In this document: positions 156 to 25,300 of the stretch, piece by piece
How positions within the stretch are numbered: the stretch's first letter is position 1
Layout: every line of letters begins with the position of its first letter
Source of the DNA: Girardia tigrina
Lineage: Eukaryota
Length of the DNA: 64,000 nucleotides
Direction of reading: 5' to 3'
NCBI GenBank assembly: GCA_001938485.1
Contig: MQRK01236046.1
Location: 15,318-79,317 of the forward strand
Made by a program: the position numbers and the translations under genes
Notes under the pieces: model-generated
The model's database searches: none
Told to the model about the DNA's origin: nothing
The model's input: the letters and a program-made list of their open reading frames with translations, nothing else

Positions 156-880
156 TCAGTGAAAATTTGAAGTTTCTATGTGGTCTAAATGCTGAGATAT
201 AGGCAAAAGTAAATGGCCCATTCTTGACAAGATGAAATACAGTGAAGGTATATGAAAAGTGCTTAAAAATTGACCTCCGGATTTAGGGAATAATCCCATT
301 TCACAAAAAGTGTTAGTGGCCGAAAGATCTCTTACTCCTAACAGACCTTTTTTGTTGATATTTAGGGCTCTAAATTCTAAATTTAAATCGTGGCCAACAA
401 TTATTTTTCCAAAGCATAATTGTTGTACCTTCTCAATTATTTCATATTCATCCTTCTTTCCTCTCATCATATTCTCGGTTATCCCGTGGTACTTTTCACC
501 TGTGCAAATCATTTTGTGCCTAGGGGTTGTGAATTCATTAAGTAATATATCCCCTTTTCTATTCAAAATGGTAATGGACACTAGTCCCCTAGTCTTATCT
601 AGTAAATCTCCCGTAAATTCCGCGTCCATAAATATTAATTTTTCCTTTATTTCATCCGTAGATAAAGGTTTACGAATGAAACTCCTACGAAATTTGAAAC
701 CCTTTACTAACTGAATCCGTTGTGAATTGGTACTGATTTGGGATTGATTGATTGCTTGTGTTTCTAAAAAAAAGGAAAAAAATTATTACCCCCTAACCTT
801 CACCTAAACAGGTTACTATGATAAGATAAAAGATTTTGAAAGAAAAAAAAATACTTACTAGAAAAATTTTTGAAGTTCAT
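156..880 (-). CDS. DEDDh 3'-5' exonuclease (REX4/RNase T-like), two exons (880-859, 763-156), C-terminus truncated or degenerate; cargo of a Gypsy-like element
   Basis: Motifs MDAEFTG (DxE), KYHGIT, IIVGHDL, VRDLS. Upstream ATG exon ends in GTAAGT, the acceptor is TTTTTAG, and splicing keeps the frame. The final HxxxxD motif was not found. Confidence 0.75.
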
Positions 881-1147
881 AATTTTGAAATATATATTTT
901 ATGTTTATAATTTGTTTGATTTTATAGTATTGATAAAGTTTTTTTTAACCAATAAGAAAGTTTTTTTTTAAAAGATTACTAACAAGCATCGCTCGCTCTA
1001 ATTTGTTGATACTCAGTCACACACATAAATCACAAAAATGTTATATCATTATAAGATTACAAGGGTATTAATGACATAAAAGAAAAATGATAAAAATAAA
1101 TAGATAAATAAAGTGAATATATACAAAGCATGCAAACTATCTCACAG

Positions 1148-3230
1148 TTACACCAGGGTTGATTGCGTTACTCGAACATCCCTTTGATTGAGTTGATAGG
1201 ACCGTCGTAGGTAGTTCGAAAACACTCGGAGCCAATGCCCACTTATGATCAGAAACATGATTATAGATATGATAACCATTCCAAAAATGAAGTAAGCAGT
1301 TTGTACAGAACTCCATCGGAAAAATATTTGCTTTCTATACACCTTTGATAAATTTGAAGCATTATTAAAGTGATTGGAAATATCTGAATCAGAAACGTTA
1401 AAATGAAGATTATCATTTTTATGAATTAAATTTAAATATTGATGACTATCATTAATATAGGTACGCTCCTCAATATATAAGGTCCTTACGATTTGATTGT
1501 CAACAAAAATAGTATGCCAAATAACTTTTGTTTTGTTTAGTTTTTGATATTAAATTTTTAAGGAATAATCTTCAGCTTCTTCAAGGTTTTTGATTTCTAC
1601 AATTGACGTAAAATAGTCAAGTTTTACCGTAATTACGGATCCCATAAATGAACAAAGTACAATGACCCTTTCATATAGATTTGATTTACGTACTAATATT
1701 ATTGAATTTTCATGAACTTTGATATCAATTCTATTGGTTTCGTTAATAATCGTTAGACAGAAATCTTCACTAAAAATAATTTCCCAACTACGTTTTGAGT
1801 ATTCTAACTTGTTATTTAAATATGCTTCAAAATATTGCAATTTTACTACATAGCTATTCTTAATTTTTAAATTATCGATGACCAAAAAAGGTTTTTCACT
1901 TGTCAAGAATTCTGATCTTTTTAGAGATTCAATTTCATATTCTACTCTGACTCGTACTAACTTAACAGGTTTCCAACGAATCATAATACTTAACCATGTG
2001 GGTTCAATTAACACCTTTTCAAGATTTGATTTTGTCCATACTCTCATTTTAAATTATCTGGATTATTGTCGATTTCAAATTGATTCTCCCAATATTTGAT
2101 CTGAAAATTATAGTAATGATTAAAGTATAAATTTCTTACCATTCCTATAGACAAAGTGTTGTTTACTATTAATGATCTTTTGACATCATCAATCGAATAA
2201 TATAATTTGAAGGTTTCAGAAGTGTGACATCTACATTGAAAAATTATTAAATTATAAGTTGAATAAATTTTTAATTGATTTAAAGTTTTAAGTTCAGTCT
2301 TTGCTGTATGATAATGTATAGATTGAGCTCCAGAGATAGGTAGAGAAAAATACAAAATCCAGGGTATGATCGATAAATAATGACATTTTTTACTTTTCTT
2401 TACCGAGTCTTTAATTTCTGTGCTCGTAGCATTTGCTTTGTTATTTCTTGCTTGCAGATTATAATGAGGTTCATCGACTTGTAATACTTTTTTGCATCTG
2501 TTAGCATGAACTACAATGATTTCCGCGTTTTTGTTATTTGCTGGTTGTAATCTAACGTTAGTTGGAGTTGTTCCACAAACTCGATAAGGTCCTTTGNNNN
2601 NNNNNNNNNNNNNNNNNNNNNNNNNNNNNNNNNNNNNNNNNNNNNNNNNNNNNACTAAATCTCCAATTTTGAAATCGTGATCCTTGGCTTTTTTATCGTA
2701 CGCAGATTTATATTCCTCTTGATTATGTTTGATTTTTAACCCTGCTCTTTCCCAAGCTAATTGCATTCTTTCCTTCATCAAGGTTTTATAATCAGCAACA
2801 TCAATAGTATTAGAGTCTACTTGTTCATAATTTAAATCGATGGGCATATTAGAGTTACGTAAATGCTTAAGATAAAACGGTGTTTCATTTGTAGCCGGAT
2901 GAACTGCATTATTGTATGCAAAGATACATGAACTGATATGTACATCCCAATTTGTTTGTCCATTATTTACGTACGAGGAAATCAAGTTTAATAGTGTACC
3001 ATTGAATCTTTCAACAAGACCATCCGTTTGCGGGTGATACGGAGATGTATTCAATTTCATTATTCCGAAATAATCAGTTACCTGTCTAAAAATTCACTCA
3101 TAAAATTTGAACCTTGATCTGTTAATAATTTTTTCGGAATATCATAACGAAATATTATTTCCTCTACGAATACTTTCGCTACTGTTTCAGTTTTTTGATT
3201 TGGTATCGGGACTGCTACGGCCCATTTTTC
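1148..3230 (-). pseudogene. Ty3/Gypsy integrase (rve) continuing into a membrane glycoprotein-like extension (hydrophobic leader, FN3-like repeats, C-terminal TM)
   Basis: TDQGSNF..., TSPYHPQTDGLVERFNGTL and GPY motifs. Then LSIIPWILYFSLPISGA, FN3-like W..Y..L..Y patterns and the TM segment AYFIFGMVIISIIMFLII. Two single-base frameshifts (~2047, ~1551) join the three track ORFs. Confidence 0.8.
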
Positions 3231-3439
3231 TGGTTATTGGTATTTTTAATCATTAATACTTCTATATATTGCGATTAATTAAATATTTCTCAAATAGTCT
3301 TTGATGTTGTCTTTGTTTTTATTTTCTTATTATTTATATTTTATTTTCTTATCAAATATTATTACGAACGTTTTGACATTATAATGGATTATTTGAGCTC
3401 GAATTGTTTTCATGAATCGGCAATAGTTGTGGCACACAA

Positions 3440-3560
3440 GGATTGCCCTACAGGGGTTGAGGTTGCGACTGGTTGAAGATGTAGCCGCGGTTCGTCTCCG
3501 CGTCCAAGGTATCGAGTGAGGTGGTCCTTGGACTCTGACGCGTAACTGAGTTATGTTGGT
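3440..3560 (-). repeat. Conserved block homologous to 11585-11680 (+), part of the giant LTR-element family
   Basis: TCAGTTACGC...GTCCAAGGACCA...TTGGACGCGGAGACGAA is present in both copies, in opposite orientation. Confidence 0.8.
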
Positions 3561-3683
3561 GTAAATAGGACGTGTAAATATGTACATGTGTTTATAATTG
3601 ATTAAAACTAACAAATTGGCATTTAATTCTATTCTACTAAATGTTATTGTCTATTTAATTTAATGTAAGAAATTTTAAGTAAT

Positions 3684-6600
3684 TGTCACGACCCATTTGT
3701 TCATAACAATTTTAAGTGCTCAGAGGCCCCAGTGGCTATTAAGGGTCAGCCACAACCCAATTTCAATTTATTATTTAACTACAACTCTCTACAATACTTA
3801 TTCTCTCTACTATATATTATAGGGTCGGACGCCTCTTCTCGCTCGACATCTGCCTGACAGTGCCGAGTGTGAAGGGCCTGCGGGTTCTGATAGAGATGGG
3901 ATGGGCTATGAGCCCCCCACCTAGCGGAGTGTCGCTCGGGGATGATGTATGCTCTATTATTGTGTAATATGAGACTTACGGTACTGTTGTGTGTAATATA
4001 AAACTTGTTGCACTGTTATGTGTTTATGTTTCGGAAACTTGAGGCGATGTTATGCCTGTAGGTTGACTTGCTGCACTGTAGTGAATGAATGTGATCTTAT
4101 GGCACTGTTATGTTCGCGTATATACTCGAAGCGTCTGTTTGTTTTGTTTTAATGACCTATGATATCGTTGTTCGCCTGTTTGTAGCAGAATCTATGTTTA
4201 TTATAGCTCACTAGTGTGATGATGAACTCCTCTGGTTCCCTTACTTCTAGTATGACATGATAATTATGGCTTTTCTATCGTTATAGAATACATGATCAAC
4301 AGCAGCTTTTTTCGAGAACATTTTTATCTCATTATCTAACACTACATCGTTCTTTAACACTATCATTGTATTACTATTTCGTTATTATTACTTAGTGTAA
4401 TTCGACAGTCGTGATTTTATGGGGTTTGTCGTTATTTCTCACTTCCAATTTTTAATGCTTATATCGCTAAATACCAGAACTAAATAATTCCTATGCGCGA
4501 TTCCTCAAAGACAATTATTAATATTTGTAAAACAATTTTATCTTATTATTAATATCTACATACGTATCTTTAACTATTAATATTTGTAAAGTAATTTTAC
4601 ACCTCCCGCAAAGAGAATCGTTGATATTCATAAAATAATTTTCGTCCGCTAACTTCAATAGAATTATTATTAATAGAGTAAAATAAATTTATTCATAAAA
4701 TAATTTTCGTCCGATAACTTCAATAAAATTATTACCCATAAAATTCAATAACAAAATAAATTATATACAGATTTGATTTTAGACTCGTTTGTTTTAATGG
4801 TCTAAATTGCATCTCGACCTTTGGGTGTTTTTTTCGATTCCCAAAAGAAATTTTCAATCTTAATCGCCTCAACTACATTTTTCCATGGAATAACCACACA
4901 GTCAATAAAATATAGAGGTAACGAAATTACAGTTTTTAATTGCTAAAATTATTTACCATAAATAATCGGTATTCTTCCACAAAATTCATAATTCGCTTTG
5001 ATTTTATTTTTCTCATAGTCGACAAAATTAAACACCACTCTCGCTTACCGTCAAGATAAATATTTCACCGGTATAATGAATAACTAGCAATCGGGCATGA
5101 TTAATAAATAATCAATCTCAATTAGCAACTAATAGCAGAGTGTAACTAATAATTAATAACCAGGTGAGACTAATAACGCTCTCAGATACTACGTTCCTTA
5201 CTATAGTAATCACTAATATAAAAATAATAATAACAAGACGGTGACTAAAATCGTAAGTTAAGGTATATTTAAAAGAAAGGGTTTTGTCTTAGATACTCGG
5301 TCGTCCGACACGGGCGAGCTCGCGGCTCTGCGTCTTCGATTGGTCATGGATATCTCCGAGAAACAATTTGAGGGGCATTGAAGTTACATCTACGATGATC
5401 GGGTCAGCATAATTCCCGACGCTCTTCCATCGTGCGTTAGAGCGCAAATTCTCTCGGGGCATAGTTGAAGGCGACGACGGCGGGACGACGGATTACCTGA
5501 CTCGGAAATTAAGTATCTACTAATCATAAACTATAATAAACACGAAAGTAAAGTCAAAGTAATAGAATAAAACGAAAAGTGAAACTGTAGATTATTATTC
5601 AATAAAAAAAGCTAATGACCACAATCAAACATAATAAATGAAAATTTACAGTTGAATTCGTAAGCTGGGAGCCGGTCGAATGTCTCGGTCGTCTGGTACT
5701 CTTCTTCGTCGGCGCGTCACTCGGATGAAACGTCGTCGTACACTGTCGGGTGGTTATGGCGGGATAATCGTGGATTCCGCTGTCCTTGTGTAACCTCGGT
5801 TCGTGTCCCACCTTTTCTTCTCGTACGTGTTCGGTATCCTTGCCTTCCGTTGATCGTTGGTATTTCGTATCGCGTACGCCTCTGGAACTCGTTGTCGTCG
5901 AAGATAGTGCAAATGGATCTTGATAAATTCGTGAGCAAAATTGCTATGTAAAAGTTGTTGTGGTTGTTGTTGAAAGTTGTAATTTTTTTGTGATTCTCGG
6001 CAGTGTGACTGTTATATTTATAACAGCGTTATTGATTTTGTCAGGGTGCGATTTCCTCGTGGCCGCTTCTGATTGGCCAACATCGACGGTTTTGTTTTTC
6101 GATTTATCGGGGCAATTTGTTGCCGTACAGTATGTCCAAATATGGACAATGACTGCTTTGTCACATGGACAAGGCCTACCTTGTCACCGATGACTGTTCA
6201 TCGCGTGATGCTGTTTTTTCTTTGTGGGCCTGACTCATGGTAAGTTTTGTTTGCTATTCTTTGTCTTACTTAATTGGCCTTTGTTCTTTTTTAATTAATT
6301 TATATTTCTTTACAGGGGTATAACTTTTCAGGGGAACGCGTCAGAATTTTGCGGGTGACCTTCAGGGGTTCCTCATCTTCGGGGCTACAAGTGGAGGGTC
6401 TGTTGGCCTCATAATGTTGACGGGTCGCCTTGGAGGTGACTTTATTAATTTTTTGGGGTCTATTTTTCAATTAATTCTTTCTTTTCCAGGGTTTGGACTC
6501 TTCTCGGATCTTTGGACGTCGTCGGCCGTCTTTGGGATCGCCTCAAGCTGTCGTCAGAACTTTATTAGCTTTTTCTTTTTGGAATTTGAATAAATGTATT

Positions 6601-8081
6601 TTGCCTAACTGGTCTTTAATATTTTTGGTGTTGTTTTATTAATATTTTTGGAAACAAAAAAAATTTTTTAATGGGTTTAGTATTCTCTATAAATTTCTTA
6701 ATGGGTTCCGGGCCGTACTGTTGCACTTAGATGGTGTTCCTTCTTTTGTTTTCTCCTCTTAGGTTTATAATTCAAATTTCAATTTCTCGACCACAACATA
6801 ATGATTTTGGGAATTAATTTGATTCAATTGTTTGTTGGTTTAAAGTTTTATTTAATTCATAATAATTTTATATTTAAGTAATTTGTTAGTTATTTATTAG
6901 CAGGTTTTCGGTAATATTTCCTGGCTAATTTTTGAGTAATTTTAATTTAATTTATGCTTTAAAATTTAACTTACTTTGAAAATCAGAAAATTTAATTTAA
7001 AGTAACAGCAGTTATTACTGAAAATCTTACGACGAAGTCTCAATTATGCAACCGTTTGTGATTTATTTAATGACCTTTGATTATGATTTATTCGTGCTCG
7101 CTAAAGTAGGGAAAGATATTCGTGTATACTTACAATCTGTAAAGTTGTATGACATCGGAAGTGAGGATTCCAGAAATTTTCAATATGCAACATTAACATT
7201 TACAAATTTTAAATCTGGGAATCCCAAAACAGATCTCGGTTTTCGTTACGAATTGGTAAAATATGACGACAAAAGTATCAGGGAAGGTTTATCGGAAATG
7301 TTAAAGTTTAAAAGTGCAGATTATTTTTCCTCATTATATACGGAAAAAATTGGAAAGGTTCTATTATTTTCTGAAGTTTTGTTGTCCAGTTATACTTTAA
7401 CGAAAAAAATTATTGAACTTGGGAATTATCACCCAGTCGTTATGAATTCGTATGTTCCAAAAGGAAAAAGAGGGAGAGGCTCTAATAAATGGATCAGTCT
7501 TCTTGGTTACGCTATGTTTTCGTGCTTTTTCCCCATTTCTGTCAGATCAAAACTGGAGTGTTCCATAATTTCATTCCATAACTTGTTGATATTGACATAT
7601 CAGAACTAAAGAAATTATCACGTGAGTTAAATTTACCAGGTATCATATCTGTTAACGAGATTGTTAATAATCAAGAAAATGTGACATTTGAACCGCAATC
7701 ACATGAAGAAATTTTAGAATTTATTAAAAATGGAAAGAATCGAGATGAATAAAATCAAACACAAAATAAAGAATTTATTCATATCAGAAGATCTACTCCA
7801 GATGATTTCAAGAAAATACTTACAGCAAATTATGAAATTATAAAAGTTTTAGCGAATGAGGAGTGTGTTGATAAAAACGTTTTAAAAAATGCTTATTCTT
7901 TGTTGGAATATGTGCGAAAAAGATCACAATCAGAAAAACACTTGATAATTATTTTATGAAAAAGTATTTTATTTAATAAATGTTATTAAATTTCTTCAGT
8001 TTTTTTCAATCCACCTAACCCGCTCAATCCGCCAAATTCTTAAAACCACCATTTCATTTCTAAGCGGATTAGGCGGTGACA
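3684..8081 (+). mobile_element. Putative ~4.4 kb LTR (unit A) of a giant Gypsy-like element
   Basis: Starts TGTCAC and ends GTGACA (terminal inverted hexamer). The first ~260 bp are homologous to 8507-8752. No TSD found. Confidence 0.5.
7046..7609 (+). CDS. Hypothetical protein inside LTR-like unit A
   Basis: 187-aa ATG-initiated ORF in AT-rich DNA. No family recognised, and the 3' part may be frameshifted. Confidence 0.4.
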   Translation: MQPFVIYLMTFDYDLFVLAKVGKDIRVYLQSVKLYDIGSEDSRNFQYATLTFTNFKSGNPKTDLGFRYELVKYDDKSIREGLSEMLKFKSADYFSSLYTEKIGKVLLFSEVLLSSYTLTKKIIELGNYHPVVMNSYVPKGKRGRGSNKWISLLGYAMFSCFFPISVRSKLECSIISFHNLLILTYQN

Positions 8082-8129
8082 ACTGTATATATATATATAT
8101 ATACACATTGTAAGGTAAAATCTATATAA

Positions 8130-8389
8130 TAGGGATAAAAACAAGACGACGCGTTTCGAGATAATAAAAATCCCATCATCAGGTCACAAAATGTACCAAG
8201 CAGGTATACTATATGGAAACTTGCCGAAAATAAATAAATTTTATCCAATAAATTATTATCCAATAATTTATTGGATAAAATTTATTTATTTTCGGCAAGT
8301 TTCCATATAGTGTACCTGCTTGGTACATTTTGTGACCTGATGATGGGATTTTTATTATCTCGAAACGCGTCGTCTTGTTTTTATCCCTA
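8130..8389. repeat. 128-bp near-perfect inverted repeat (Penelope-like terminal repeat) embedded in (TA)n
   Basis: Arms 8130-8257 and 8262-8389, 4-nt spacer ATCC, one mismatch. Confidence 0.95.
8334..8374 (+). ncRNA. Minimal type I hammerhead ribozyme (Penelope-type); mirror copy at 8145-8185 (-)
   Basis: GAC-CTGATGA-TGGGAT(TTTTATT)ATCTC-GAAAC-GC-GTC^GTC: full catalytic core, stem II, 3-bp stem I and a palindromic ACGCGT stem III. Confidence 0.85.
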
Positions 8390-8506
8390 ATATATATATN
8401 NNNNNNNNNNNNNNNNNNNNNNNNNNNNNNNNNNNNNNNNNNNNNNNNNATATATATATATAATGTGTGATCGCCGGGAGTCGAATCCGGATCGAATGCT
8501 TGGAAG

Positions 8507-11500
8507 TGTCACGACCCTTTCGAGTTAAAACATTTTGGAAAGCTCAAGAGCCTCCAGTGGTTATTAAGGGTCAACCACAACCCAATGTTACTTTGAAAGT
8601 ATTGATTTACTTTATTTTATCTGTGAGCGGGTCGGACGCCTCTTCTTGCCCGATATCTGGCTAGCAGTGCCGAGCGCGAAGAGCCTTCGGGTTCAAGTAA
8701 AGATAGGACGGGTGAAGGCTCCCCCCCCGCCTAACTCAGTATCAATCGGGGTATGCTGTGTGATACGTTTGTGTCGATTATGTCTGTGTCGGCTTCGTAC
8801 TGTAATGAAACTTGTGGCATTTATGACGCGCTTAAGTGCTGTGCTAAACTTACGGCGTTGTATCTGTGGACGTACTTGAAGTACAGTCAGGTCCGATTTC
8901 TCTGAAATTACGAGAATATTATATCGCTGTATGTTGCATATTAGTTCATCGTTTTATTTCACCCCCATCTCTCTACAGTTTATATCATGCCGTGGCATTT
9001 TATTAGTATTCAGTATTTATTTGCCTTTCACCAGGCTCTCTCATTAATTAATATGTGCTTCAGTTTTTGCACGAGCGTTTGTTATATATTTACCGTCATT
9101 CAGTTAAAATTGAATTTATATAGTCAGTATTTATTCTCGTCTCCTAGAAGTGAATTCGCGACTAACAGATTTTATCGGTGAAAGATCCTCAATTAAACTT
9201 ACAATTTCCTTTGATAATGATGTCCGAACTTAGTCAGGAATTCCTTTGGAAAAACTTAAAAATTTTATTCATAAAAATTTCATAAATTCATAAAAATTTT
9301 ATTAATACCTCGTAAAGTTTTCCTAAAATCCCATTATATCATAAAATTCATTATAAAATTCTTGATCAACATTTCGTAGAATTGTTATAAAATTCCAAAT
9401 ATTAGCTGCTCAAAACTTCCGTTAAAATTCGCAGTTAGGTTAGAATTGGATTTAAGTTAAACTAAATTAAAATTAAACTCGCAATCAAAACTGAAAATCA
9501 ATTAAATTAAAACTGGAAATTATAAGGATTCATCATAAAATCATGGAATTTCTCCAAAAAAAAATTTTTTTACTGATAAAGGTTCATTGATTAAAGATTC
9601 ACTAATTTTTTACTAAAGATTTTGTAAAAGATCTCGATTAATTTATTCACTAGGATAATATATATTTATTTCGTAACGAAGGGTTTTTCGTTTGTTTTAA
9701 TAATCTAAAGTTCGTCCTACAAACCACTCTGCGAATTAGATTTTCCTTTCGAATATCATACACATTCATTACGATATTTTCGCTGATGATGCGGACGACG
9801 ACCGGGGAACTAATTCTTAACTCCAGCTCCGAAGCATCGGGTGTTCGATCTTTTATCTGTTTTTAGTCAAACTGACGAAGATCAATTCCAATCAGGTATA
9901 TGCTTACTGGCTGTCTAAATCCAAACTAAATCACTGTCGTTCAAATAATGTCAGTTAATTTATTAGAATTCGATTAATTAAAACCACTTAAATCAAATAA
10001 TAGTTAGTTAAATAAATTTATTATAATTTAACAAGGATTAATCGAATACATTTATTGATATAAATAAAACTGAATCAACTATGTTTCCATAAATTAATCG
10101 AGTTTACATTTATTTCTTCGCTCACATCAACACGTTGTGTGTACGTTGGAACGCCTTCGGGTTCTCTACCAGTACCGAGGATGGCCCGATTGGTAACACA
10201 GTTTCTGAGGGGATGATGCTAACTCTAACTGAAGCTTATATTTTAGACTACATTATCTAGATAAGACAAAGAGTGTCTCGAGGAAATAAACGTCGGTCTG
10301 CCCGCGTGCCCCTCGCATGCTACGAGCAGCCTGCGTCATCTCCAAAAGATTCTTTGTCTCTACGTAAACTCAAATTATGCGTAAATTTATTTCATACTCA
10401 CGTTCAATTATATTCGTATTTTATTATGTTGGGTTCTATGATATTTGAATATATTTGTTATCATTATCTGTATGGATGTGCTGAACTGCGACAATGATTC
10501 TACAACTTGTTAATTTGTTTATTACTAAAATTATTGCTCAGGAAAATTGAAAAAACGGCGCACAACGTTTCGAACATTTCAAATGTTTATCATCACGATC
10601 GTTTGAAAATTTGTGACTTTATTTGTGTCATCATTCGAGATTCAATATTATTTTGTCTGCTTGCAAATTAGTTTAAATTGTTCATAAAACAATTGCATCG
10701 GAAACTTAAACTAGCCCCGATGTTGCATTAATCAACGTTATATTAGGTCCATATAATTAAACTCTCATGCCACGAATCGACAAAACGAAATCAGAAAAGT
10801 TTACGTAAATAAATAACTAATAACTTCGGAAAACATGAAATGATAAAACCGTATTTGATTCACTTCTTTCATTACTCTCACGTGATCTACATCTGTGACT
10901 ATCTGACAACTTGTGATCACAACTCTCGCTTTAGTACTCGTTGCAGTTCTCACACACCTTTTACGATCTTAAATAACCTTTCTTGGCCGTGTTCTCGCAA
11001 TCACACGTAATAGTCCTAAAGAGAACCGTTGTTCGTTCTTTAGTGACCCTGTATAGAACATTAGACTCTCTCATAATCGTGTGGTATTAATTCACATTTC
11101 ACAAATCTAGCTCAAGAAATTTAACTTTTGATTCAGTCACTTATCTCGTAGAAAATTTACTCCTTTCAAAACTTTAATTTAATATAAAATTTTACCAATT
11201 AGACTCATTAGTAAAGGAATATTTTTAAAGAATATTTATAAAATATTACGAATTAATGTTCGAGATGATCAGTTACACTCATTAAGAAAGAAAAATCATT
11301 ACAAAATATTTACAAAAATTACGAATTAATGTTCGAGATGATTCATTAAACAAAAAAAATAAAAATTTCTAATAAGTTACAAAATTTAATTAAGCTCGTT
11401 AAATTCGTGTTAAATAAAATTCTAATTTCCAAATTAATTCAGTAATATATAAAATAATAACCAAATTAACAACTACTGAAAAAAAATAATAATTGGATTC

Positions 11501-13643
11501 AATCAGTTATTATATCAATGATCTTCCCATTAATCTCAGTTATTTACATACTTCCAACCAACACCATTATTTACAAGGCTTGCATACAACTCAGTTACGC
11601 CACGAAGTCCAAGGACCATTCTCCCTGATCCTTTGGACGCGGAGACGAATCGCCGTCGTATTGTTGTCTACCAGGGTCGATAACTTCGATGCCCATGACA
11701 GTTCGAATCGTTCTCGACAATTTGATTTTCGCAGTTGCAATGCAAACAAGATCGATATTCAAATGAAATATTTATATAATATAACTTTCAAAGAGTTAAT
11801 AAGATCATATCACTCGCGAATTATTTATTAATTATAATCCAAATTATACTCCGAAATTAAAACATGAATGAAATAAAACAGAACAACAAAATTTTGATAT
11901 CAAAAATCAATAATAAAAAATAATTAAGACAAGAATAATAATGAATTAACAAATGATAAATGAACCATACCTTCTTATCAATCGACTATTCGCATTATAC
12001 TGTAGCGTAAATATAAAATTAACTGTCAAAGTAAATCGTAGGATCAAATGTCGTTAAATAAACTGACACAATTGTGTCGAGAAAAATGTAATTGTACTAG
12101 TAAAATTGTCGCTGTAAAAATTGCGTGGTAAAAGCTGTTGTAAAAATTGTTCGTAAAAACTGGCGAAATCGTGCACACTCCTACGGGTATTTATACCCTC
12201 CGGATGTGCATAGCTCTCTCGACATCCTGTATACAATCTGGTTTCGAGACAGGGTGAGGGGGAATCAATGTTGTTTAAAAATTGCACATCCATGATTCAT
12301 GGGTATAACAGGATTAAAGGTTTGTGCGTTTTCGCCGGAGAAAGATGCGCTGCGGCATTCTAACCAGTTGAAGGTAATTAGATAATAATGTTTATCTTAG
12401 ATGCGACTACTGATTATTCCATATGTTATGATTACAGGGTGGAGAGGTAACCGTCGCTTTTTCTACGACATCCTCGATTCGCAGATACCTCGAACGTTGC
12501 CAACATCTGTTGTAGCATACCCGACTGCGATTGTTCGTGAATAACGGATGTCTGTTTCGTTTACTGCAGACCTACCTCGAAGATAAACAAATGTCGAATT
12601 TTTTGCGATTCATACTGAATCATCTCGGTAAGATTTTTAATTAACTAAGAATTCTTAATTAATTTCTATATGTTTCTCAGGATTTTTTAAAGGGTTTCTC
12701 CGCCTGCTGGAATTAAAATGGAGGACACGGAACATCGTCCGCAGAGCCCTTCTCCTGCCTTGTGCTCCAGTGCGTTCAAAACCTATTTAACACTACTGAG
12801 GATAGTCTAGTTTGACTATCCTCACAAATCCTCAATAAGGTTCTTATATGTGCAGGATGTCGGGTATGGGGAAAGGTTCTCGGCGGGTTATGGAATTTGT
12901 CGTATCGTAACAGATGATTTGATTAAAAAATAAAACCATCTTCTCTCATAGGAGATACTTTAGGTTTTATCAAAAAAATATAAGAAAATATGAAATATAA
13001 ATCAATAGTAATTTTACTTTTGTAGCTTCTTTCCTTTGTAAATTTGTAAAGAGTAATTTTTTTTGGGCAAACTAAACAAAATTTACTGCTGTTTATATAG
13101 TAGTTTTCATCAGCCTTGACAATTGATCAAATAAAACAAACACTAAGATATTTTTAAATTTCAATTCCAAATTTTGTTAAACTAAATATTATTTTGTCTG
13201 AAATTAATAATTTTACCAAAAGAATTATCCTAAATTTTTTCTACATAAAAATTTTGTTACAAATGTTCATAGGTATTTTTCGAAACCCTAACAATTCTCT
13301 ACTACGGCGACGCTGTGCGTGCGGGTATATTTATGTTTTTTCTACCCCGGTTATACGATGTGTGTCTGTCATCGGTGTGTACAATTATTGATTTTTCTGG
13401 TGAGTTATTTATGTCATATTAGACTATTTTAAGTTATGCAACTGCAGGAACCCCCAACAGGACAACCCACCATGAACAAGTGCTATCGATGTTTGGATTT
13501 TTGATAAGCCTTAAGTTTTGTTAATTTTCTAATATTTTTTGTTAATTTATTATTATTAATAATAATAATAATTATTGATAACAGAGTGGGTAGCGCAGTG
13601 GTGTACCTGCGGCAGATTAGTTATGGTGGCGACTCTCTTGACA
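8507..13643 (+). mobile_element. Putative ~5.1 kb solo LTR (unit B) of a giant Gypsy-like element
   Basis: Starts TGTCACGACCC like unit A. Candidate end is TGACA at 13643, with GAAG on both flanks (possible 4-bp TSD). The right boundary is tentative. Confidence 0.4.
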
Positions 13644-16349: not shown

Positions 16350-19300
16350 ATGGTGAAAGATATTATGATTCTCACATTACAAAATCAAATGAACAATCAA
16401 TACGAATTATTCCGCATTAAAAAAGGTAAAAAAAATCGATAATAATCATTTTAATTGATTATTTTCGTAAAGATTCGTATTTACGACTCCAAATCGGTCA
16501 TAGTTTGTTGGGAAAATCGTTGCGGATATTCACCAATTATCCGATGACGTCGAATATCTTCTTGAGACACGAATATCACGAGCTCGAGATCGTCAATCCG
16601 ACTTTATCCGGCAACAAACGCGACTGTTTCGACAATTACGCCGAATTTCGAGCCACTCTATCCGGGGCGTTCCAGTTCTACTTCACCGAAAACGGATCCG
16701 CGTCGATTTCCGACAAAATCGGCGAAGGATATTTCATAATCGATCCGAGATTCACGTTCCATTTGAGCGAGAAGTTCAAGGACGTCCATTTCGAGCTGGA
16801 CGGGATCGTGCTGCAGACCTATCTGGCCAAGAACCTGGGCCCGTTCGCCGAGTGGAACAAGCGCATCCAGCCGGCGCTCGACGGCAACTACAACATGATC
16901 CACTTCACCCCGCTCCAGGAACTGGGCTACTCGCGCTCGGCGTATTCGCTCCGCGACCAGCTGCGCGTCAACCCGAGCTTCTCGACGGCCGCCAACCAAG
17001 TCTCGTGGTCGATGATCGAGAAATTCGTCGACAACCTCTACCAGAACCACCAGTGCCTGTCCATGACCGATCTCGTCTACAACCACTCGTCCAACGACTC
17101 GCCGTGGATCCACGAGCATCCCGAGTGCGCCTACAATGTCGTCAATTCGCCCCATCTTCGACCGGCCTATCTCATCGATCGGATCGTTTGGAATCTCACG
17201 CTCGACGTCGGCTCCAATCGATACGAGAAGCGCTCTCTCACCAGCATCGTGTCCAGTGGCCGCGACATCGAAATTATCCGCGAGATTCTCTGGGAGAACA
17301 TCAACGATCTCCGGGTGCACGAGTTCTACTTGGCTCATCTCGACGACGAGGTCGACTCGTTCCGCAAGTTTCTCCAGGAGATCGATCAGGACATCGTCGA
17401 CGACGCCGTGTTGCGACCGGGCGCTCTCGTTCTCGATCACCGCAAGTATGAGCGGCTCCGGTCGGGGATCGACCACGCCATCGTCGGCTATCATTTCTAT
17501 CGGGAGTTCCGCGACATCGACGCCGCTTGTATCAAGTACCGCCAGACGCTCGAGCGACTCAATGCGGCCATGTATCGCGAGGTGCNNNNNNNNNNNNNGA
17601 TCGCCAATGTCGGCTACCGGTTCATCGACGAGCACGGCTTGCGACTGGGCCGGGTGACGCCGGACACGCCGCTCATGTGGAACTACTTCTACCATCCGTA
17701 CAGTGACGTGGTGACGCTGCGCGACTGCGAGATCAGGATGGCCGGCGAGCCCAGACTCATGGCCTTCAACGGCTGGGTCATGAACGACAACCCGCTGAGG
17801 AATTTCGCGGAAGAAGGAGCCAACGTTTACCTGCGACGGGAATTGATCGTGTGGGGCGACTCGGTCAAGCTGCGCTACGGCAACAAGCCCGACGACTGCC
17901 CGTATCTCTGGGACCATATGTTCAAGTATACCGAGCTCACGGCCAAGATCTTTCACGCGATCCGACTCGACAACTGCCACGGCACGCCGATTCACGTCGC
18001 CCAGGCGATGCTGGACCGCGCGCGAGCCGTCCGCCCCGACCTCTACATCGTCGCCGAGCTGTTCACCGGGAGCGAGGGCGTCGACAATGTCTTCGTCAAC
18101 AAACTCGGCATCAATTCTCTGATCCGAGAGGCGCAGAGCGCGTGGAATTGCAGCGAGCAGGGCCGCCTCGTCCATCGGTTCGGCGGATTCCCGGTCGGCG
18201 CCTTCGTCCAACAGATCCCGCGCCAGTTGTATCCGAGCACGGCGCACGCCCTCTTCTACGACATGACCCACGACAACGAGTCCCCGGTCTGCAAGCGGTC
18301 CCCGTTCGATCTGCTGCCGACGGCCGCGATCGTCGGCATGGCGTGCTGCGCCGTGGGAAGCACTCGCGGCTACGACGAGATCGTGCCTCACTACATCGAC
18401 GTGGTGAACGAAGAACGGTTCTATTCTCGGTGGGGAGAAACGATCACCATGGACACGGGAATCGTGCGCGCTAAGAGTCTCATCAACAAGCTCCACAAGC
18501 GGCTGGCGGTTGACAACTTCAACCAGGTGTACGTGGACCAACTGGACGGCGACATCGTGTCCATCACGCGCCTCAGCCCGACCAAGCACCGGTCGGTCGT
18601 GGTCGTGGCGCACTCCGCGTTCTCGTACCCGGGACACGAGCCCGGCCACCGGCCCGTGCGCGACATCGGCCTCTCGGGAAAGGTGATCAACATCCTGTTC
18701 GAAACGCGCACGACACGGGACGTGNNNNNNNNNNNNNNNNNNNNNNNNNNNNNNNNNNNNNNNNNNNNNNNNNNNNNNNNNNNNNNNNNNNNNNNNNNNN
18801 NNNNNNNNNNNNNNNNNNNNNNNNNNNNNNNNNNNNNNNNNNNNNNNNNNNNNNNNNNNNNNNNNNNNNNNNNNNNNNNNNNNNNNNNNNNNNNNNNNNN
18901 NNNNNNNNNNNNNNNNNNNNNNNNNNNNNNNNNNNNNNNNNNNNNNNNNNNNNNNNNNNNNNNNNNNNNNNNNNNNNNNNNNNNNNNNNNNNNNNNNNNN
19001 NNNNNNNNNNNNNNNNNNNNNNNNNNNNNNNNNNNNNNNNNNNNNNNNNNNNNNNNNNNNNNNNNNNNNNNNNNNNNNNNNNNNNNNNNNNNNNNNNNNN
19101 NNNNNNNNNNNNNNNNNNNNNNNNNNNNNNNNNNNNNNNNNNNNNNNNNNNNNNNNNNNNNNNNNNNNNNNNNNNNNNNNNNNNNNNNNNNNNNNNNNNN
19201 NNNNNNNNNNNNNNNNNNNNNNNNNNNNNNNNNNNNNNNNNNNNNNNNNNNNNNNNNNNNNNNNNNNNNNNNNNNNNNNNNNNNNNNNNNNNNNNNNNNN

Positions 19301-22300
19301 NNNNNNNNNNNNNNNNNNNNNNNNNNNNNNNNNNNNNNNNNNNNNNNNNNNNNNNNNNNNNNNNNNNNNNNNNNNNNNNNNNNNNNNNNNNNNNNNNNNN
19401 NNNNNNNNNNNNNNNNNNNNNNNNNNNNNNNNNNNNNNNNNNNNNNNNNNNNNNNNNNNNNNNNNNNNNNNNNNNNNNNNNNNNNNNNNNNNNNNNNNNN
19501 NNNNNNNNNNNNNNNNNNNNNNNNNNNNNNNNNNNNNNNNNNNNNNGGTTCAACGCGATGTTCGAGCCGATCAAGAGCCTGCCGCGATATCTCGTGCCGT
19601 CCATGTTCGAGATCCTCATATCGAGCGCCCACAAGTTGGCCGTGGAAGAGGTATTGATTTCGTGATTGTGGGTTTGTTTGTCTTTCGGGATCGAATCGAT
19701 TAGCAAACGTGGTGATTGTCGAGTGGAAATAATCGATTGAACAAATATTTGTTTGCTGTTATTTCTCATTGACAATCGAATCAATTGATTTACGATTTTC
19801 AATATTGATTGTAATTGCTTCAGTGCTACTATCAATTGGGCGACAGTATCGTTTTCGGGTCATCTCTCATGAAGAATCTGTCGCTGGGGTCCATCATGCT
19901 CTGCTCTGTCGTCAGGAACTGCAGATTGCCGCCGTTGGCCATCGAGACCAATCAGGAAGTATGCACCTTGTCGGCCGGGTTCTCGCACTTCGCCGAGGGC
20001 ATCTGGAGGAACTGGGGCCGAGACACGTTCATTTCTCTGAGAGGCCTGACACTGCTCACGAATCGGTTCGAGGTACGCTCTGTTCTGTTTGATTCATCAC
20101 TCATTTCCACTTATATTTATCAAATAATCGATTATTATCATTGATTTTATGTTTAAAATTCGAAAACCAATTGAAATTGTTTATTGATTTCGACGGATTG
20201 CCCGCCATCTTCAGGACATCTGTTTTTATTGACAGAAAAGAAATGCACTTATATAATACCGACAATGATTGTGTAATCAATACGCCATCAATAAAGTTGT
20301 CGAGAGTGCATTTTGATCGTTAATTTTAGGATCCAAAGATCTTATATAAATAACGCTTCACACGAGTCACTCTCTCCCGATAATTCTTGAATTGAGTGCA
20401 CAGAATTTAAAAGTTATTGATGTTTATGTGCCATTTCCTCGCGACTGTGTTCCTGGATTGTCTTACAGAGATGACGCGCAGTCTCTCCAATGTGTGTGAC
20501 GTGGAAGTGGGATCCGGACACAGTCCCAATGGCGTTTAAATTCATCGTATCATCTGCTTTATATTGCTGGACACAGTAAACATTGTAAGGGGGACACAAG
20601 CATCCATGACTTTATAAGCCTCCCGACTGTCACAAGAACACATAATACTCAGCATTGGCGCACAGGGCAGTGAATCAAGGACTCTGTATCGGGTAGAAAC
20701 CATTTTGATCCTCTCACATGGCTTCGGATGCAAGAGTTCGAAATTTCAATGCACGGGCGCGCTTCGGCTCCCCTATGACAAATGACCACTCATGTTCCTT
20801 CGTTCCGTGATTCTGGAGACTTCTGGCTGTATAAACGCACTTAGTGCAACGGGGAAATGGGCCGTGAAACACTCCCTTATCACACCGACAACTCAGCACC
20901 ACATGAGGACTCTCCTCATCTGTTTATGTTCTTTCTACTACTCGGATGTTCGTAGTACCATTACCTTGGATTCGATGATCGATCATTAAATGCTCTGTGT
21001 CGTCGGAGCCGTGGCCAAACGCAAATTCGTAATAAGTCTTGTGAGTTCGTTCTGCTCAGCAAATTCTTTAAAGCAAGAAAGGAATGTGCGAGTTTAAGCA
21101 TTTTCGGATATTCTTTCTCGTGCTCGACTATCTCTTTCAGTCGCTCGGAGATGGTTCCTTTGATCAGGTGTTTAAATTCCTTATCCTTGTCGAGAAGTCC
21201 TCTTTTAGACTCTCCCTGTGTTCTGCCCAATCTACCCGATCATTAAACGAGCAATGCACTCTCTCATCATTTGCTTTTTACGGCCGCTGATTCTGTGATT
21301 TTCTGAGACGATCTCCGAGTTAAGAATCTCCAACCAATTGTTTGTTCGAACAAATTAATGAATGATTTACTCTCAAAACGACCTATTGTAATAATTGAAA
21401 AACATCGGCTTGATCGAACAAGTTATGAACACAAATCAATAAAACTATTTTAAATCGGTTCAAGAAAATCTATTTGAAAGTAATTGGAATCGAAAATGAC
21501 GTATTTATCAGCCACAATTCTATCCTCTTGCCTCTTCTTGGATGTTGTAATCAGATGCGTGCGTAGAACAATATTTCTGGGGGGATGTACTATTACGTAA
21601 CTCATATTTTCTTTTTCAAGTTTTATTTTCAAAGTTAAAAAATTTAATTTATATTCTCATCGAAATACGACTAATGCAGTTAATATCACTTGGTTATTGA
21701 TCATTACTGGCTTCAATTTAGTTTCATGATTTGAGAAAGAAAAAATTTCTATGCTCTGTAAAACTTATACGTAATTAAGATCGTAATTTAAATTTTTCGG
21801 ACGGGGGATTTTCTTAAAATCTTTGGAAAGTTTCACATTTTAAATTCAAGAATTTTAAATTATTCTTATTACCGTTTTTTTCCGTGTATGAGATCCCCCT
21901 TATTTTTGAGTGTACATTGTGTGGAAAAAGTTCAAAAAAGTACCTTAATTCATTCCTGAAAGTAAATTGAAATCTTTTGTATCGGAGAAATATTTCAAAT
22001 ATTAACTAATTGTTGAAAATTCACATTAAATGTTCATTGAATTTTGACAAAATGGGGTCTTATACACAGAAAAATACGGTAATATTCTGTTAGCAAACTT
22101 AGGGCTAATAAAGATCGTAATTCAAAATTTTTTCTGAGGGGATTTGTCCTGAACCACACTGAGTTGCCCAGCTTGTCCTACACAAAATCTAAATTACCCT
22201 GTTTTATGGTTATATGGTGGCACCTTAGTAGATTTTAAAAGACAAAATTTTACTTCGAAAGCACCGTAGTAAACAGTGGAACCTTAGTTAAAAGTGGCAC

Positions 22301-25300
22301 ATTAGTAAAACGAAACAAAAATTTAAAAAAATTTCCTTCTTTTTCAATTATATTTTTTTATCATCATAATCTTCATCTTCGCTACCAAAATTATTTTCAT
22401 CCAACAAAGTATCAATGAGCTGCTCATCTATATCATCTACCACATCTTCAGATTCTTCATCGCTTTCCTCAATAACTACATCTTCAACGTCTTCGTGTTC
22501 ATTCGGATAAAAAATGATTGTGGTCTTCTTGAAGCCATTAAGATGGCACCTAAGAAGAACAAACACAAAATTTCAGAGTTCAAAAAAATTTAATAAGGTG
22601 GCACCTTATAACCATAAAACATGGTACATAAATTTTAAGCGGTTGCTGAACACCAAGTAATTGACAAATTAAAAATGAAAATTTGAGAGCGTTCTTAGGG
22701 AAGATAGAACAATAATACTGCGTAGTAATTTCAGTTTTACCATTCTATTATGGTATTATTATCAGCGCATTTCTTTCATCGCTAATTACAAAGGAAAGTC
22801 TTATTGTTGACGATATTGACCATAATTACTGTAAAGACATTAATCACATTCTCGAAACACTCATTAAACAGTTGTTATTTCATATATACAATAAAAAAAA
22901 TAAGCGTAACGATCTGATTATGAACAAAAATGTATTTTAATTTTCTTTATTGATCGTCACTGGAAAGTTCCAACCCAAACGACAATTCTAAATTTATTTC
23001 TCTAAACATTTTTCACTTCATTCAAAAGTTGTTATTGATCGTCAACATCACACAGGACGCAAGAATAATTATCCTGATGTACGCTGCAACCGTTCGACAC
23101 GGACTGATTCCCAATTTATTAGCTGACGGTCTTGTAGCTCGATATAACGCCCGGGACGCCACATGGTTCTGGTTGAATTCTATCAAGCAATATGAGTTAT
23201 CGCAAGCGAAACTCGGGGAAAAAAGTGTCAGTATTCTAAAAATGCCTGTAGCGCGATTGTTTCCCACTGACGGTTCCGATGGCACGAAAATCAAAGAACA
23301 ACCGTTGTATGAAGTGATCCAAGAAGTTCTCCAAAGACACGCAGACGAAATAAAATTCCGAGAGCGCAACGCAGGCCATCAGATCGATGAGCACATGAGG
23401 GATGAGGGATTCAATGTCGTCGCTGGTATTAGAAACGCCACGAAATTTCCTTATGGAGGAAACGAGTTCAACTGCGGTACGTGGATGGACAAAATGGGCA
23501 GCAGTTACAAGGCCGGTAACAAGGGGTACCCCGCCACCCCGAGAGATGGAAGTGCCGTGGAAATAGTTGGACTGTGCGCGTCGGTCTTGGAATGGTTGAT
23601 TGAGTGAGTATTGTTTTCATTGCTATTTATTATTGTTATTATTGTTATTGATTGTGTGCGCATTAGTTAAATTTGAGATTATTTATTGATTATTTCAGTT
23701 TGTATAAACAATTATTTTTTTTAATTTATTAAATTATTTCTCTCATTTTTGTTTATGTTATGTAATTTATGTTTTATTACGATCGATTATGTCACACCGA
23801 TATCAATTGAAAGTAATGTTTTTCCTCTATCGATTTCCAATGGGAAAAATTAAAATAAACATTATTTTCATTTATGTGAAATGTGCGAATGCCGCTCGAT
23901 ATTGATTTTCAATTTTCAGTGCAACGAGCAATAAACAGTACCCGTATAGCGGGGTCAATTTTTTCGGTAACTCGCTGACTTGGAACGATTGGTACAGCGA
24001 CGTGAAAAAGTATTTCGATGATATGTTTTTCATTCCAATCGACACGACAGATGAACACTTGGTTTACAATCGGGGCATCTATCGGGACACTGTCAATTCA
24101 GTACTCGGGTACACTGACACACTGTTCAAACCGAATTTCGTTGTCGCTATGGCATTGGTGGGTCTTTGTTCTCTCTTAGATTTCTTTTTCTTATTCTTTT
24201 CCTTTCCAATATGACTTTTTAAATCGATTTTTTTCTGTCTTTTCCAAATAGGCCCCTGCTATATTCGTTGTGGAACACGCATGGCACGCTTTGGGTCTCG
24301 TTGAGAAAGAATTGCTCGGTCCTCTCGGGATGCGTACTTTAAGCCCGAGAGACTGGGCTTATCGAGGCTATTACGATAACAGCAATGATTCGACTGACAA
24401 ATCCGTTGCCGCCGGATTCAATTATCACCAGGGCCCAGAATGGGTCTGGTTGACGGGATTTTATTTGCGCGCCAAATTGATCTTTTGTCAGAAAATATAC
24501 GCAATCGATACGGATAAATACAAGACTGTCATCCCGGAAACCATAACCCATGTTCAGATGGTTCTTGGACGTCTGGATCATCACATCAAACACTCTAAAT
24601 GGCGATCTCTGCCAGAACTGACCAATAGAGACGGACAGGTGAAAATTATTCGATTACACATCAACAGTAGTGGCCGAGAGTCTTTATCCCCATTCCTTAA
24701 AATGTGTGAAAAATCAATTTTCATTAACTATTTTTTATTTATCTTTGTTTTATCACATTGATTGCACGAGTGGTATTGATTTAAATATTGCTCAACTGTT
24801 TCTATGACATGCAAGTTACAATTGTCAACTCAATGCCACGCTAAATCGATCGAAATATCTTCTATTTTTTAGGTAATTTCAATTGAGAAGAAGGACATAC
24901 TCATAAAGCAATTGCTGAACGTTATGGTATTCATTTCAAGTCTGTGTCTTATATTATTGAGAGATGCTGAAACGGGTTCTGTTCACGACCGACATCGTTC
25001 TGGCCGTCCTCGACAATCGACTCCAAGGGAGGACAAGCTCATCAGAAGTCTCAAATAAGGACATTCCCGTGTGATCCATGGGTTCACAACTGCAGCTCTT
25101 CTGATCAATTTGTCATCCGCTGGAGTCGATTTCCTTGAGAATATTGGACACAGACTTGAAATGAATGCGATCGTTTTTGAGTACGTCCTTCTTCTCTCAA
25201 GATAAGCACCCGGACACGCTTCTCGATTGAAATTGGTGTAGAGCTACTCATTACCTAAAAAATAGAGGATAATTTGATCGATTTAGCAAGGCATTGAGTT

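Follow-up and report, generated by a model that had tools for sequence, protein, structure and literature searches.

Organization of the window

The window analysed here is a stretch of 64,000 nucleotides that carries, among other features, two long units of LTR retrotransposon origin, each with a copy of a structured motif at one end (Table 1). An initial annotation of this DNA had pointed to both motif copies, and all the letters that it quoted are found there. It had also described the units as diverging everywhere except at this end, as is the case: they align only over positions 3681-4079 and 8504-8887, with 65% identity. Its view of two giant LTR-like units holds for their nature and fails for the integrity of unit 2, which by its alignments is a chimera, with a main-family LTR up to position 10099 and a sister-family LTR from position 10116 onwards. 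The 5' end of the sister-family segment at 12912, flanked by GAAG/GATG, is tentative. Neither complete motif copy is followed by a primer-binding site (PBS), and both would be relics of the U5 function proposed below. We infer from its motif that the TATA-like box of unit 1 is the LTR promoter, in which case R and U5 together would measure about 2.3 kb.

Two short GT-AG intron-like segments lie antisense to the LTR in its U3 part (6240-6315 and 6437-6490), and similar ones are found around 12370-12680. Positions 6239-6315 are skipped in a contig of sequencing run X2, whose status as RNA is a guess; together these observations hint at a spliced antisense transcript in the U3 part of the LTR. 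The segment 3224-3552 is 62% like 11588-11939 in inverted orientation and is probably a piece of a sister-type LTR of opposite direction that was the target of the unit 1 insertion.

Table 1. Features of the two LTR units and of the structured U5 domain in the window.
Feature	Position	Strand	Remarks
Target-site duplication of unit 1, TAAT (4 bp)	3680-3683 and 6799-6802
Unit 1, solo LTR, 3115 bp	3684-6798	-	TG...CA termini; no PBS after this copy
Structured U5 domain, copy 1	3684-3946	-	Main family
LTR 3' terminus	3685-3694	-	3' strand of helix H4
Duplicated PBS start (first 9 nt)	3723-3731	-	One mismatch in window copy 1
H-type pseudoknot (model)	3732-3758	-	S1, 3754-3758 with 3743-3747; S2, 3748-3753 with 3732-3737
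AU-rich linker	3759-3821	-	Unconserved
5' strand of long-range helix H4	3822-3830	-	U5-IR-like; partner is the LTR terminus 3685-3694
Long hairpin H3	3831-3877	-	Internal loop and two bulged A; covaries most strongly
Unpaired GAACCCG	3881-3887	-	Complementary to the tRNA T arm (gene positions 49-55); PAS-like
Hairpin H2	3894-3922	-	7 bp, 2-nt bulge, 4 bp, 5-nt loop
Block A, mostly unpaired	3923-3946	-	Complementarity to tRNA-Pro 1-25, covering its 5' acceptor strand and D arm
TATA-like box of unit 1	6015-6022	-	CCAAT motif upstream; motif only
Structured U5 domain, copy 2	8507-8755	-	Different subfamily of the main family; no PBS follows
3' part of main-family LTR, first half of unit 2	8507-10099	-	86% over 1649 nt to locus L181
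Truncated upstream half of sister-family U5 domain	10116-10217	-	Block A, H2, T-arm motif and part of H3
Sister-family LTR segment	10116-12912	-	93% to locus L219 over 10116-11729
TATA-like box in sister-family LTR segment	12188-12195

The window has further features outside these LTRs. On the minus strand, 156-3235 codes for the 3' part of the polyprotein of another LTR element, with an integrase core, further ORF pieces and a weak match to an exonuclease (RNase_T); its integrase has at least 150 close relatives in the genome. A plus-strand ORF of 195 amino acids (7022-7609) gave no Pfam match, and a deep contig of run X2 covers 7085-7566. Positions 8120-8399 form a near-perfect palindrome with 138-nt arms and flanking TA repeats, which we take to be MITE-like. 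The glycogen debranching enzyme gene at 16430-24761 on the plus strand has its best named matches in flatworms, and its large exon is far richer in GC (up to 58%) than the surroundings.

The motif is the U5 end of a long LTR

The assembly searched is AT-rich and comprises 1.43 Gb in 255,254 contigs; AT-richness and genome size would suit a triclad planarian. Each window copy of the motif has more than 2,500 candidate matches in it, of which 40 were scored per search. All motif copies share a sharp end base beyond which the flanks are unrelated. A PBS for tRNA-Pro is found a few bases past this terminus, reading the minus strand, at 164 genome junctions and at none in the reversed control. Because a PBS complementary to the host tRNA-Pro adjoins the terminus, the motif lies at the 3' (U5) end of the LTR with minus-strand sense, and not at a 5' end as first annotated. 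It represents the last 260 nt or so of LTRs that measure 2-3.5 kb and belong to a flatworm LTR retrotransposon with a high copy number (2.1-3.5 kb for the LTRs found elsewhere in the genome).

A single uninterrupted 18-mer, not a short or split core, makes up the PBS and is matched by the 3' 18 nt of the host tRNA-Pro genes (16 pattern matches). All seven tRNA genes called at four checked loci are tRNA-Pro(TGG). Tandem tRNA-Pro genes spaced by about 646 nt occur at L061, L063 and L064. TG...CA termini are present in unit 1 and in five 5' LTRs fetched from the genome. An exact 4-bp target-site duplication flanks unit 1 and the LTRs of L189 and L190, three of four bases match in L181 and L183, and at the other five of the nine loci examined the duplication is absent or the end unclear. 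No purine tract that could serve as polypurine tract is common to 13 LTR starts, mostly of 5' or solo LTRs. Contigs of two sequencing runs (shares 0.08 and 0.05) cover the motif and carry no strand, start or level.

The internal parts behind six PBS contain short ORFs only, with no gag or pol physically tied to the LTRs, and no full element was recovered from the assembly. A stretch coding for reverse transcriptase, RNase H and integrase, the order of Ty3/gypsy elements, lies upstream of one LTR (L179) in sense orientation, but a gap of N separates the two. Behind the PBS, some 150 nt precede the first ORF. At L180 (207-2552) at least seven short coiled-coil-like ORFs of 110-165 amino acids are arrayed there, and such arrays are also found at L170, L175 and L177, with AT-rich spacers between ORFs and conservation between subfamilies. 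None of five of these ORFs tested scored above the Pfam cut-off, and a homology search with one of them returned one unnamed homolog. They could be exons or accessory genes.

Fold and covariation in the main family

Collection of 124 distinct U5 ends gave 97 after near-duplicates and doubtful termini were dropped, and 53 of these entered the main-family alignment. The architecture predicted from it comprises two bulged hairpins (H2 and H3), a long-range helix to the LTR terminus (H4) and an H-type pseudoknot. In the final model 94.1% of the cells of the 53 natural copies pair, in line with the covarying cis-acting RNA of an LTR-type element that had been proposed. Changes preserve pairing, as was also claimed: two-sided changes occupy 167 cells, compared to 61.6 in shuffled alignments (a value reached by 0 of 500), and slid controls give 9-39. 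Of five whole-structure measures, two fail to exceed the shuffles in this family, namely the number of pairs with a two-sided change (115 of 500) and that of further pair types (403 of 500). A G-test with a tree-simulated null yields eight pairs at E<=0.03, five of them in helices of the model, including the pair 3749:3736 of the hairpin described initially. The other three are not base pairs, which indicates that this null leaves some relatedness. The covariation of the U5 motif exceeds chance. H4 and S1 show little covariation of their own within each family.

The hairpin first described corresponds to pseudoknot stem S2. Its loop had been suggested to pair with the LTR terminus; a pseudoknot is indeed part of the model, with another partner, and in the sister family (see below) loop and terminus each change together with different partners. 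The S2-hairpin loop pairs with five bases just 5' of the hairpin, so the fold is predicted to be a compact H-type pseudoknot. L1 is short, L3 is rich in A, and the two stems, S1 of 5 bp and S2 of 5-6 bp, are 93-98% paired in both families. The AU-rich linker upstream varies from 35 to 65 nt in the main family and from 30 to 108 nt in the sister family.

Three further candidates were discarded. A helix between the 5' strand of H4 and the GGGTT segment is 89.8% paired in the main family and fails in the sister family, where each strand covaries with another partner. A hairpin near the terminus (H7) is 75% paired and limited to a subfamily. A poly(A) signal in the linker, present in 33 of 53 main copies vs 6 of 33 sister copies, is not conserved.

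A reading frame does not explain the conservation, since only 1 of 318 and 5 of 198 frames of the U5 domain are open in the two families, and lengths are spread over all three phases. Rfam gave 11 weak matches in 3400-9200 of the window, none of them on the motif, and none at six loci of both families. Metagenome and viral contigs searched with a 25-nt degenerate motif gave no match, and hence no copy from another species.

A sister family with the same architecture

A covariance model of the main family (R1) was run on the window and 38 loci. It gave a weak third match in the window, at 10039-10220 (27 bits), which led to the truncated U5 end of a second LTR family. The terminus of this sister family is followed by a tRNA-Pro PBS at 47 junctions, with none in the control. 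Its 33 copies were aligned independently of the main family; 93.0% of the cells pair and all five measures beat 500 shuffles.

The sister family keeps the architecture of the main family with other letters in the stems, and H2 has the same shape. The partner strand of H4 lies about 140 nt upstream of the LTR terminus, and both sides of the helix differ between families; its terminal pair has changed on both sides in one subfamily. S1 has a two-sided change between families and another one at L169. Two more diverged U5 ends, at L178 (2557-2815, minus strand; 32 bits) and L169 (102-321, minus strand; 68 bits), likely represent a third and a fourth family, and their sequences appear to keep the terminal helix and the pseudoknot with other letters. 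A sister subfamily has 2-3 nt inserted inside the PBS (L251, L255, L256, L259, L264, L269, L270 and L274).

Strand of the structured RNA

The domain had been placed on the plus strand on account of a cUNCGg tetraloop. The 97 main-family copies do not bear this out. The plus-strand loop reads TGCG in 28, ATCG in 26 and TTCG in 25 of them; an ATCG or ATTG loop is present in 29, the stem is mismatched in 21, and the outer stem competes with the covarying hairpin H3. In the covarying helices G-U outnumbers A-C by 364 to 58 on the minus strand, the strand on which these helices were drawn, and by 92 to 34 in a further count on the genomic-RNA strand. The alifold consensus energy is -78.0 on the minus vs -67.2 on the plus strand, and folding of single copies favours the minus strand in 42 of 53. 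Window copy 1 behaves likewise (z of -2.72 on the minus vs -0.97 on the plus strand); folding of window copy 2 is weak and does not discriminate between strands (-1.16 and -1.60, respectively). The domain would therefore fold on the LTR-sense strand, which is the minus strand of the window, the strand of the RNA itself being read from sequence features.

Complementarity to tRNA-Pro

The sequence that remains constant between the two families is largely unpaired and matches tRNA-Pro. That it pairs with this tRNA was first proposed from the main family, when the sister family had yet to come to light. Pairing energies were predicted for 14 anticodon types. In both families tRNA-Pro is the best of these partners for block A, at tRNA positions 1-25/26, with a margin of at least 4 kcal/mol over 12 other types, and 60 of 60 shuffles do less well (49 of 53 main and 31 of 33 sister copies parsed). 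Across 1460 windows of unit 2, U5-domain blocks supply each of the top three duplexes with tRNA positions 1-26; in unit 1, block A ranks third of 1030 windows, below an unrelated window at 5077-5103. Its acceptor part is weakened in the subfamily of window copy 1, and transversions break it in 31 of 97 main copies, this one included, and in 7 of 33 sister copies. Block A was also considered as an intramolecular mask of the PBS and rejected in this role, since such pairing is weaker than that with the tRNA in 48 of 49 and 31 of 31 copies.

Most of the frequent changes in block A are compatible with wobble pairing. Counted over sequences, not events, transitions are commoner at wobble-tolerant than at strict sites and amount to 209/1641 vs 31/1156 in the main family and 86/528 vs 11/394 in the sister family, an asymmetry to which a C-to-T mutation bias could contribute in part. 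The T-arm motif GAACCCG is exact in 71% of the 97 main copies and near-fixed in the sister family. It is not specific for tRNA-Pro: tRNA-Arg comes first in both families, and 7 of 60 sister shuffles are as good. About 45 nt before the terminus, the 9-nt duplicate of the PBS start, like the PBS complementary to the tRNA 3' end, is exact in 71% of the 97 copies. Paired with the leader just behind the PBS it reaches -12.8 vs -8.3 for shuffled leaders in 30 copies, and -14.0 vs -9.2 in 24 copies, and does better than shuffled leaders in 28/30 and 21/24 of them.

Proposed function

The U5 domain probably serves as a platform for the initiation of reverse transcription that captures and unzips the primer tRNA-Pro. 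The initial annotation had listed several roles for a cis-acting RNA. That general assignment stands; a ribozyme, a 3'-end element or an export element fits less well than reverse-transcription initiation, given the adjacent tRNA-Pro PBS and the motifs complementary to the tRNA. In the mechanism proposed, H4 would fold the last 145 nt onto the LTR terminus, so that block A and the T-arm motif come to lie alongside the PBS. Once the 3' 18 nt of the tRNA have annealed to the PBS, its 5' acceptor strand and T stem would be free. Block A could then pair with tRNA positions 1-25 and GAACCCG with the T arm, leaving only the anticodon arm free, with about 40-50 of the 75 nt of tRNA-Pro predicted to be paired with the element. 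A leader segment able to mask the empty PBS would switch to the PBS duplicate in U5 and form a U5-leader stem. Rous sarcoma virus has a stem of this kind, in which U5 pairs with leader sequence downstream of the PBS. For the pseudoknot and H3 we would guess at a role early in minus-strand synthesis, either in pausing or in protein binding.

A role in packaging, dimerisation or Gag binding, with proteins of the element recognising the helices and the pseudoknot and tRNA complementarity being secondary, is compatible with the initiation platform; we regard it as a serious alternative, though unlikely to be the main explanation. The location beside the PBS is that of such signals in retroviral leaders, and the 5' pseudoknot of Ty1 is described as a Gag-binding site in the part of PMC4974528 consulted. 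Many main-family copies also carry a GGGCCC palindrome in H2. This palindrome is paired in a stem instead of exposed in a loop and is absent from the sister family; in addition, the specificity of block A for tRNA-Pro would be left unexplained.

Somewhat less likely, the domain may be a tRNA-sensing RNA switch, in which the D loop, the T loop and the CCA end of tRNA-Pro would be read by three separate motifs, while the PBS duplicate and the pseudoknot would shift the genomic RNA between translation of the short ORFs and the priming of reverse transcription, as a T-box-like device within an LTR. An IRES-like translation element or an exonuclease-resistant fold, allowing the short ORFs downstream of the PBS to be translated even though some 2.3 kb of leader precede them, is improbable. 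It would make sense of a compact H-type pseudoknot placed between an inferred TATA box 2.3 kb upstream and a first ORF so close to the PBS. Against it, the pseudoknot lies about 200 nt from the AUG, the leader length follows from the TATA motif only, Rfam has no IRES or exonuclease-resistant RNA match here, and the conserved unpaired motifs match tRNA-Pro.

A constraint on DNA, be it integrase attachment or folding of the single-stranded strong-stop DNA, would account for a motif that ends exactly at the LTR terminus and for the near-fixed C-TTCG-G of the sister family on the plus strand, which corresponds to minus-strand cDNA. It is highly improbable: conservation extends inward over 260 nt, the genomic-RNA strand is the one that favours G-U, and covariation links even the terminal bases to a strand some 140 nt distant. 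Slightly less credit still can be given to the view that the tRNA-like blocks are relics of an ancient tRNA capture by reverse transcriptase whose pairing with the primer was lost. The plus-strand blocks do read like pieces of tRNA-Pro and one large subfamily is without part of the match, but turnover of the stems has left the blocks in place in both families, and the changes within the blocks tend to be wobble-compatible. Least probable is a new self-cleaving ribozyme. Several helices combined with a pseudoknot, together with unpaired bases that do not vary, might speak for it in the terminal repeat of a retroelement. Against it, Rfam has no match on either strand, loose core patterns run on either strand of 86 copies gave none for hammerhead, hairpin and HDV, at most two for pistol and at most seven for twister, in agreement with the failure to match known ribozymes noted at the outset, and cleavage just upstream of the PBS would remove the strong-stop template.

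The domain is not a new RNA class: both where it lies and what it likely does are as expected for RNA next to a PBS. Structures for the initiation of reverse transcription are well known in a few retroviruses and in yeast Ty1 and Ty3, and hardly in gypsy-type elements of animals. Two diverged LTR families in one genome provide natural covariation for a complete U5 fold including its pseudoknot, and this fold can be used as a structural marker for annotating the long, fast-evolving LTRs of flatworms.

Comparison with known systems

The domain would work in the manner of the HIV-1 PAS, the multipartite PBS of Ty1 and Ty3, the second PBS of Gypsy and the avian U5-IR and U5-leader stems. No account of this U5 structure turned up in the literature searched, which did not extend to the original Burro paper or to supplements, where an annotation of the PBS may exist. 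Burro elements, the giant gypsy elements of planarians (PMC6431247, PMC8532177, PMC11410931), are the obvious candidate family for these LTRs, membership not being established. Flatworm host, thousands of candidate copies, LTRs of several kb and short accessory-type ORFs are features in common (PMC6431247). Burro has an internal region of up to 25 kb and a giant polyprotein with BIR, BCL2, MATH and ankyrin domains, neither of which is tied to the LTRs studied here, and the excerpted part of that paper describes no U5 RNA structure (PMC6431247).

Drosophila Gypsy, a gypsy element of an animal host, resembles the present case in having a second site for tRNA binding besides the PBS, but this site is 11 nt long, lies near the 3' end and binds the anticodon and T stems of tRNA-Lys; no U5 fold of the present kind figures in the part of the source used (PMC1635307). 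In Ty1 and Ty3, too, additional parts of the genome are complementary to the T arm and the D arm of the primer (PMC4974528, PMC5371799), and Ty1 has a pseudoknot in its 5' region. Their PBS is short and split and the extra segments lie 3' of the PBS in Ty1 or at the genome 3' end in Ty3 (PMC4974528, PMC5371799), whereas the flatworm LTR has a full 18-nt PBS with all extra segments upstream, in the LTR and inside one predicted fold.

The U5-IR helix of Rous sarcoma virus involves the LTR terminus (PMC3601003), like H4. The flatworm helix differs in spanning about 145 nt and enclosing a pseudoknot in the model, and the sequences are unrelated.

Elements of the PAS type are characterised by stimulating initiation while leaving primer annealing unchanged. 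The HIV-1 U5-PBS region has an 18-nt PBS and, upstream in U5, a primer activation signal (PAS) complementary to the T arm of the primer (PMC1865047; the PAS is also treated in PMC11251516). The flatworm domain shares with it the length of the PBS, the position of the T-arm motif and a leader with alternative pairings (PMC1865047). The PAS of HIV-1 is masked in a stem (PMC1865047), in contrast to the T-arm motif of the flatworm model, which is unpaired. The flatworm LTR also differs from HIV-1 in its tRNA-Pro primer, in an additional segment that matches the 5' acceptor strand and the D arm, and in its PBS duplicate and predicted H-type pseudoknot.
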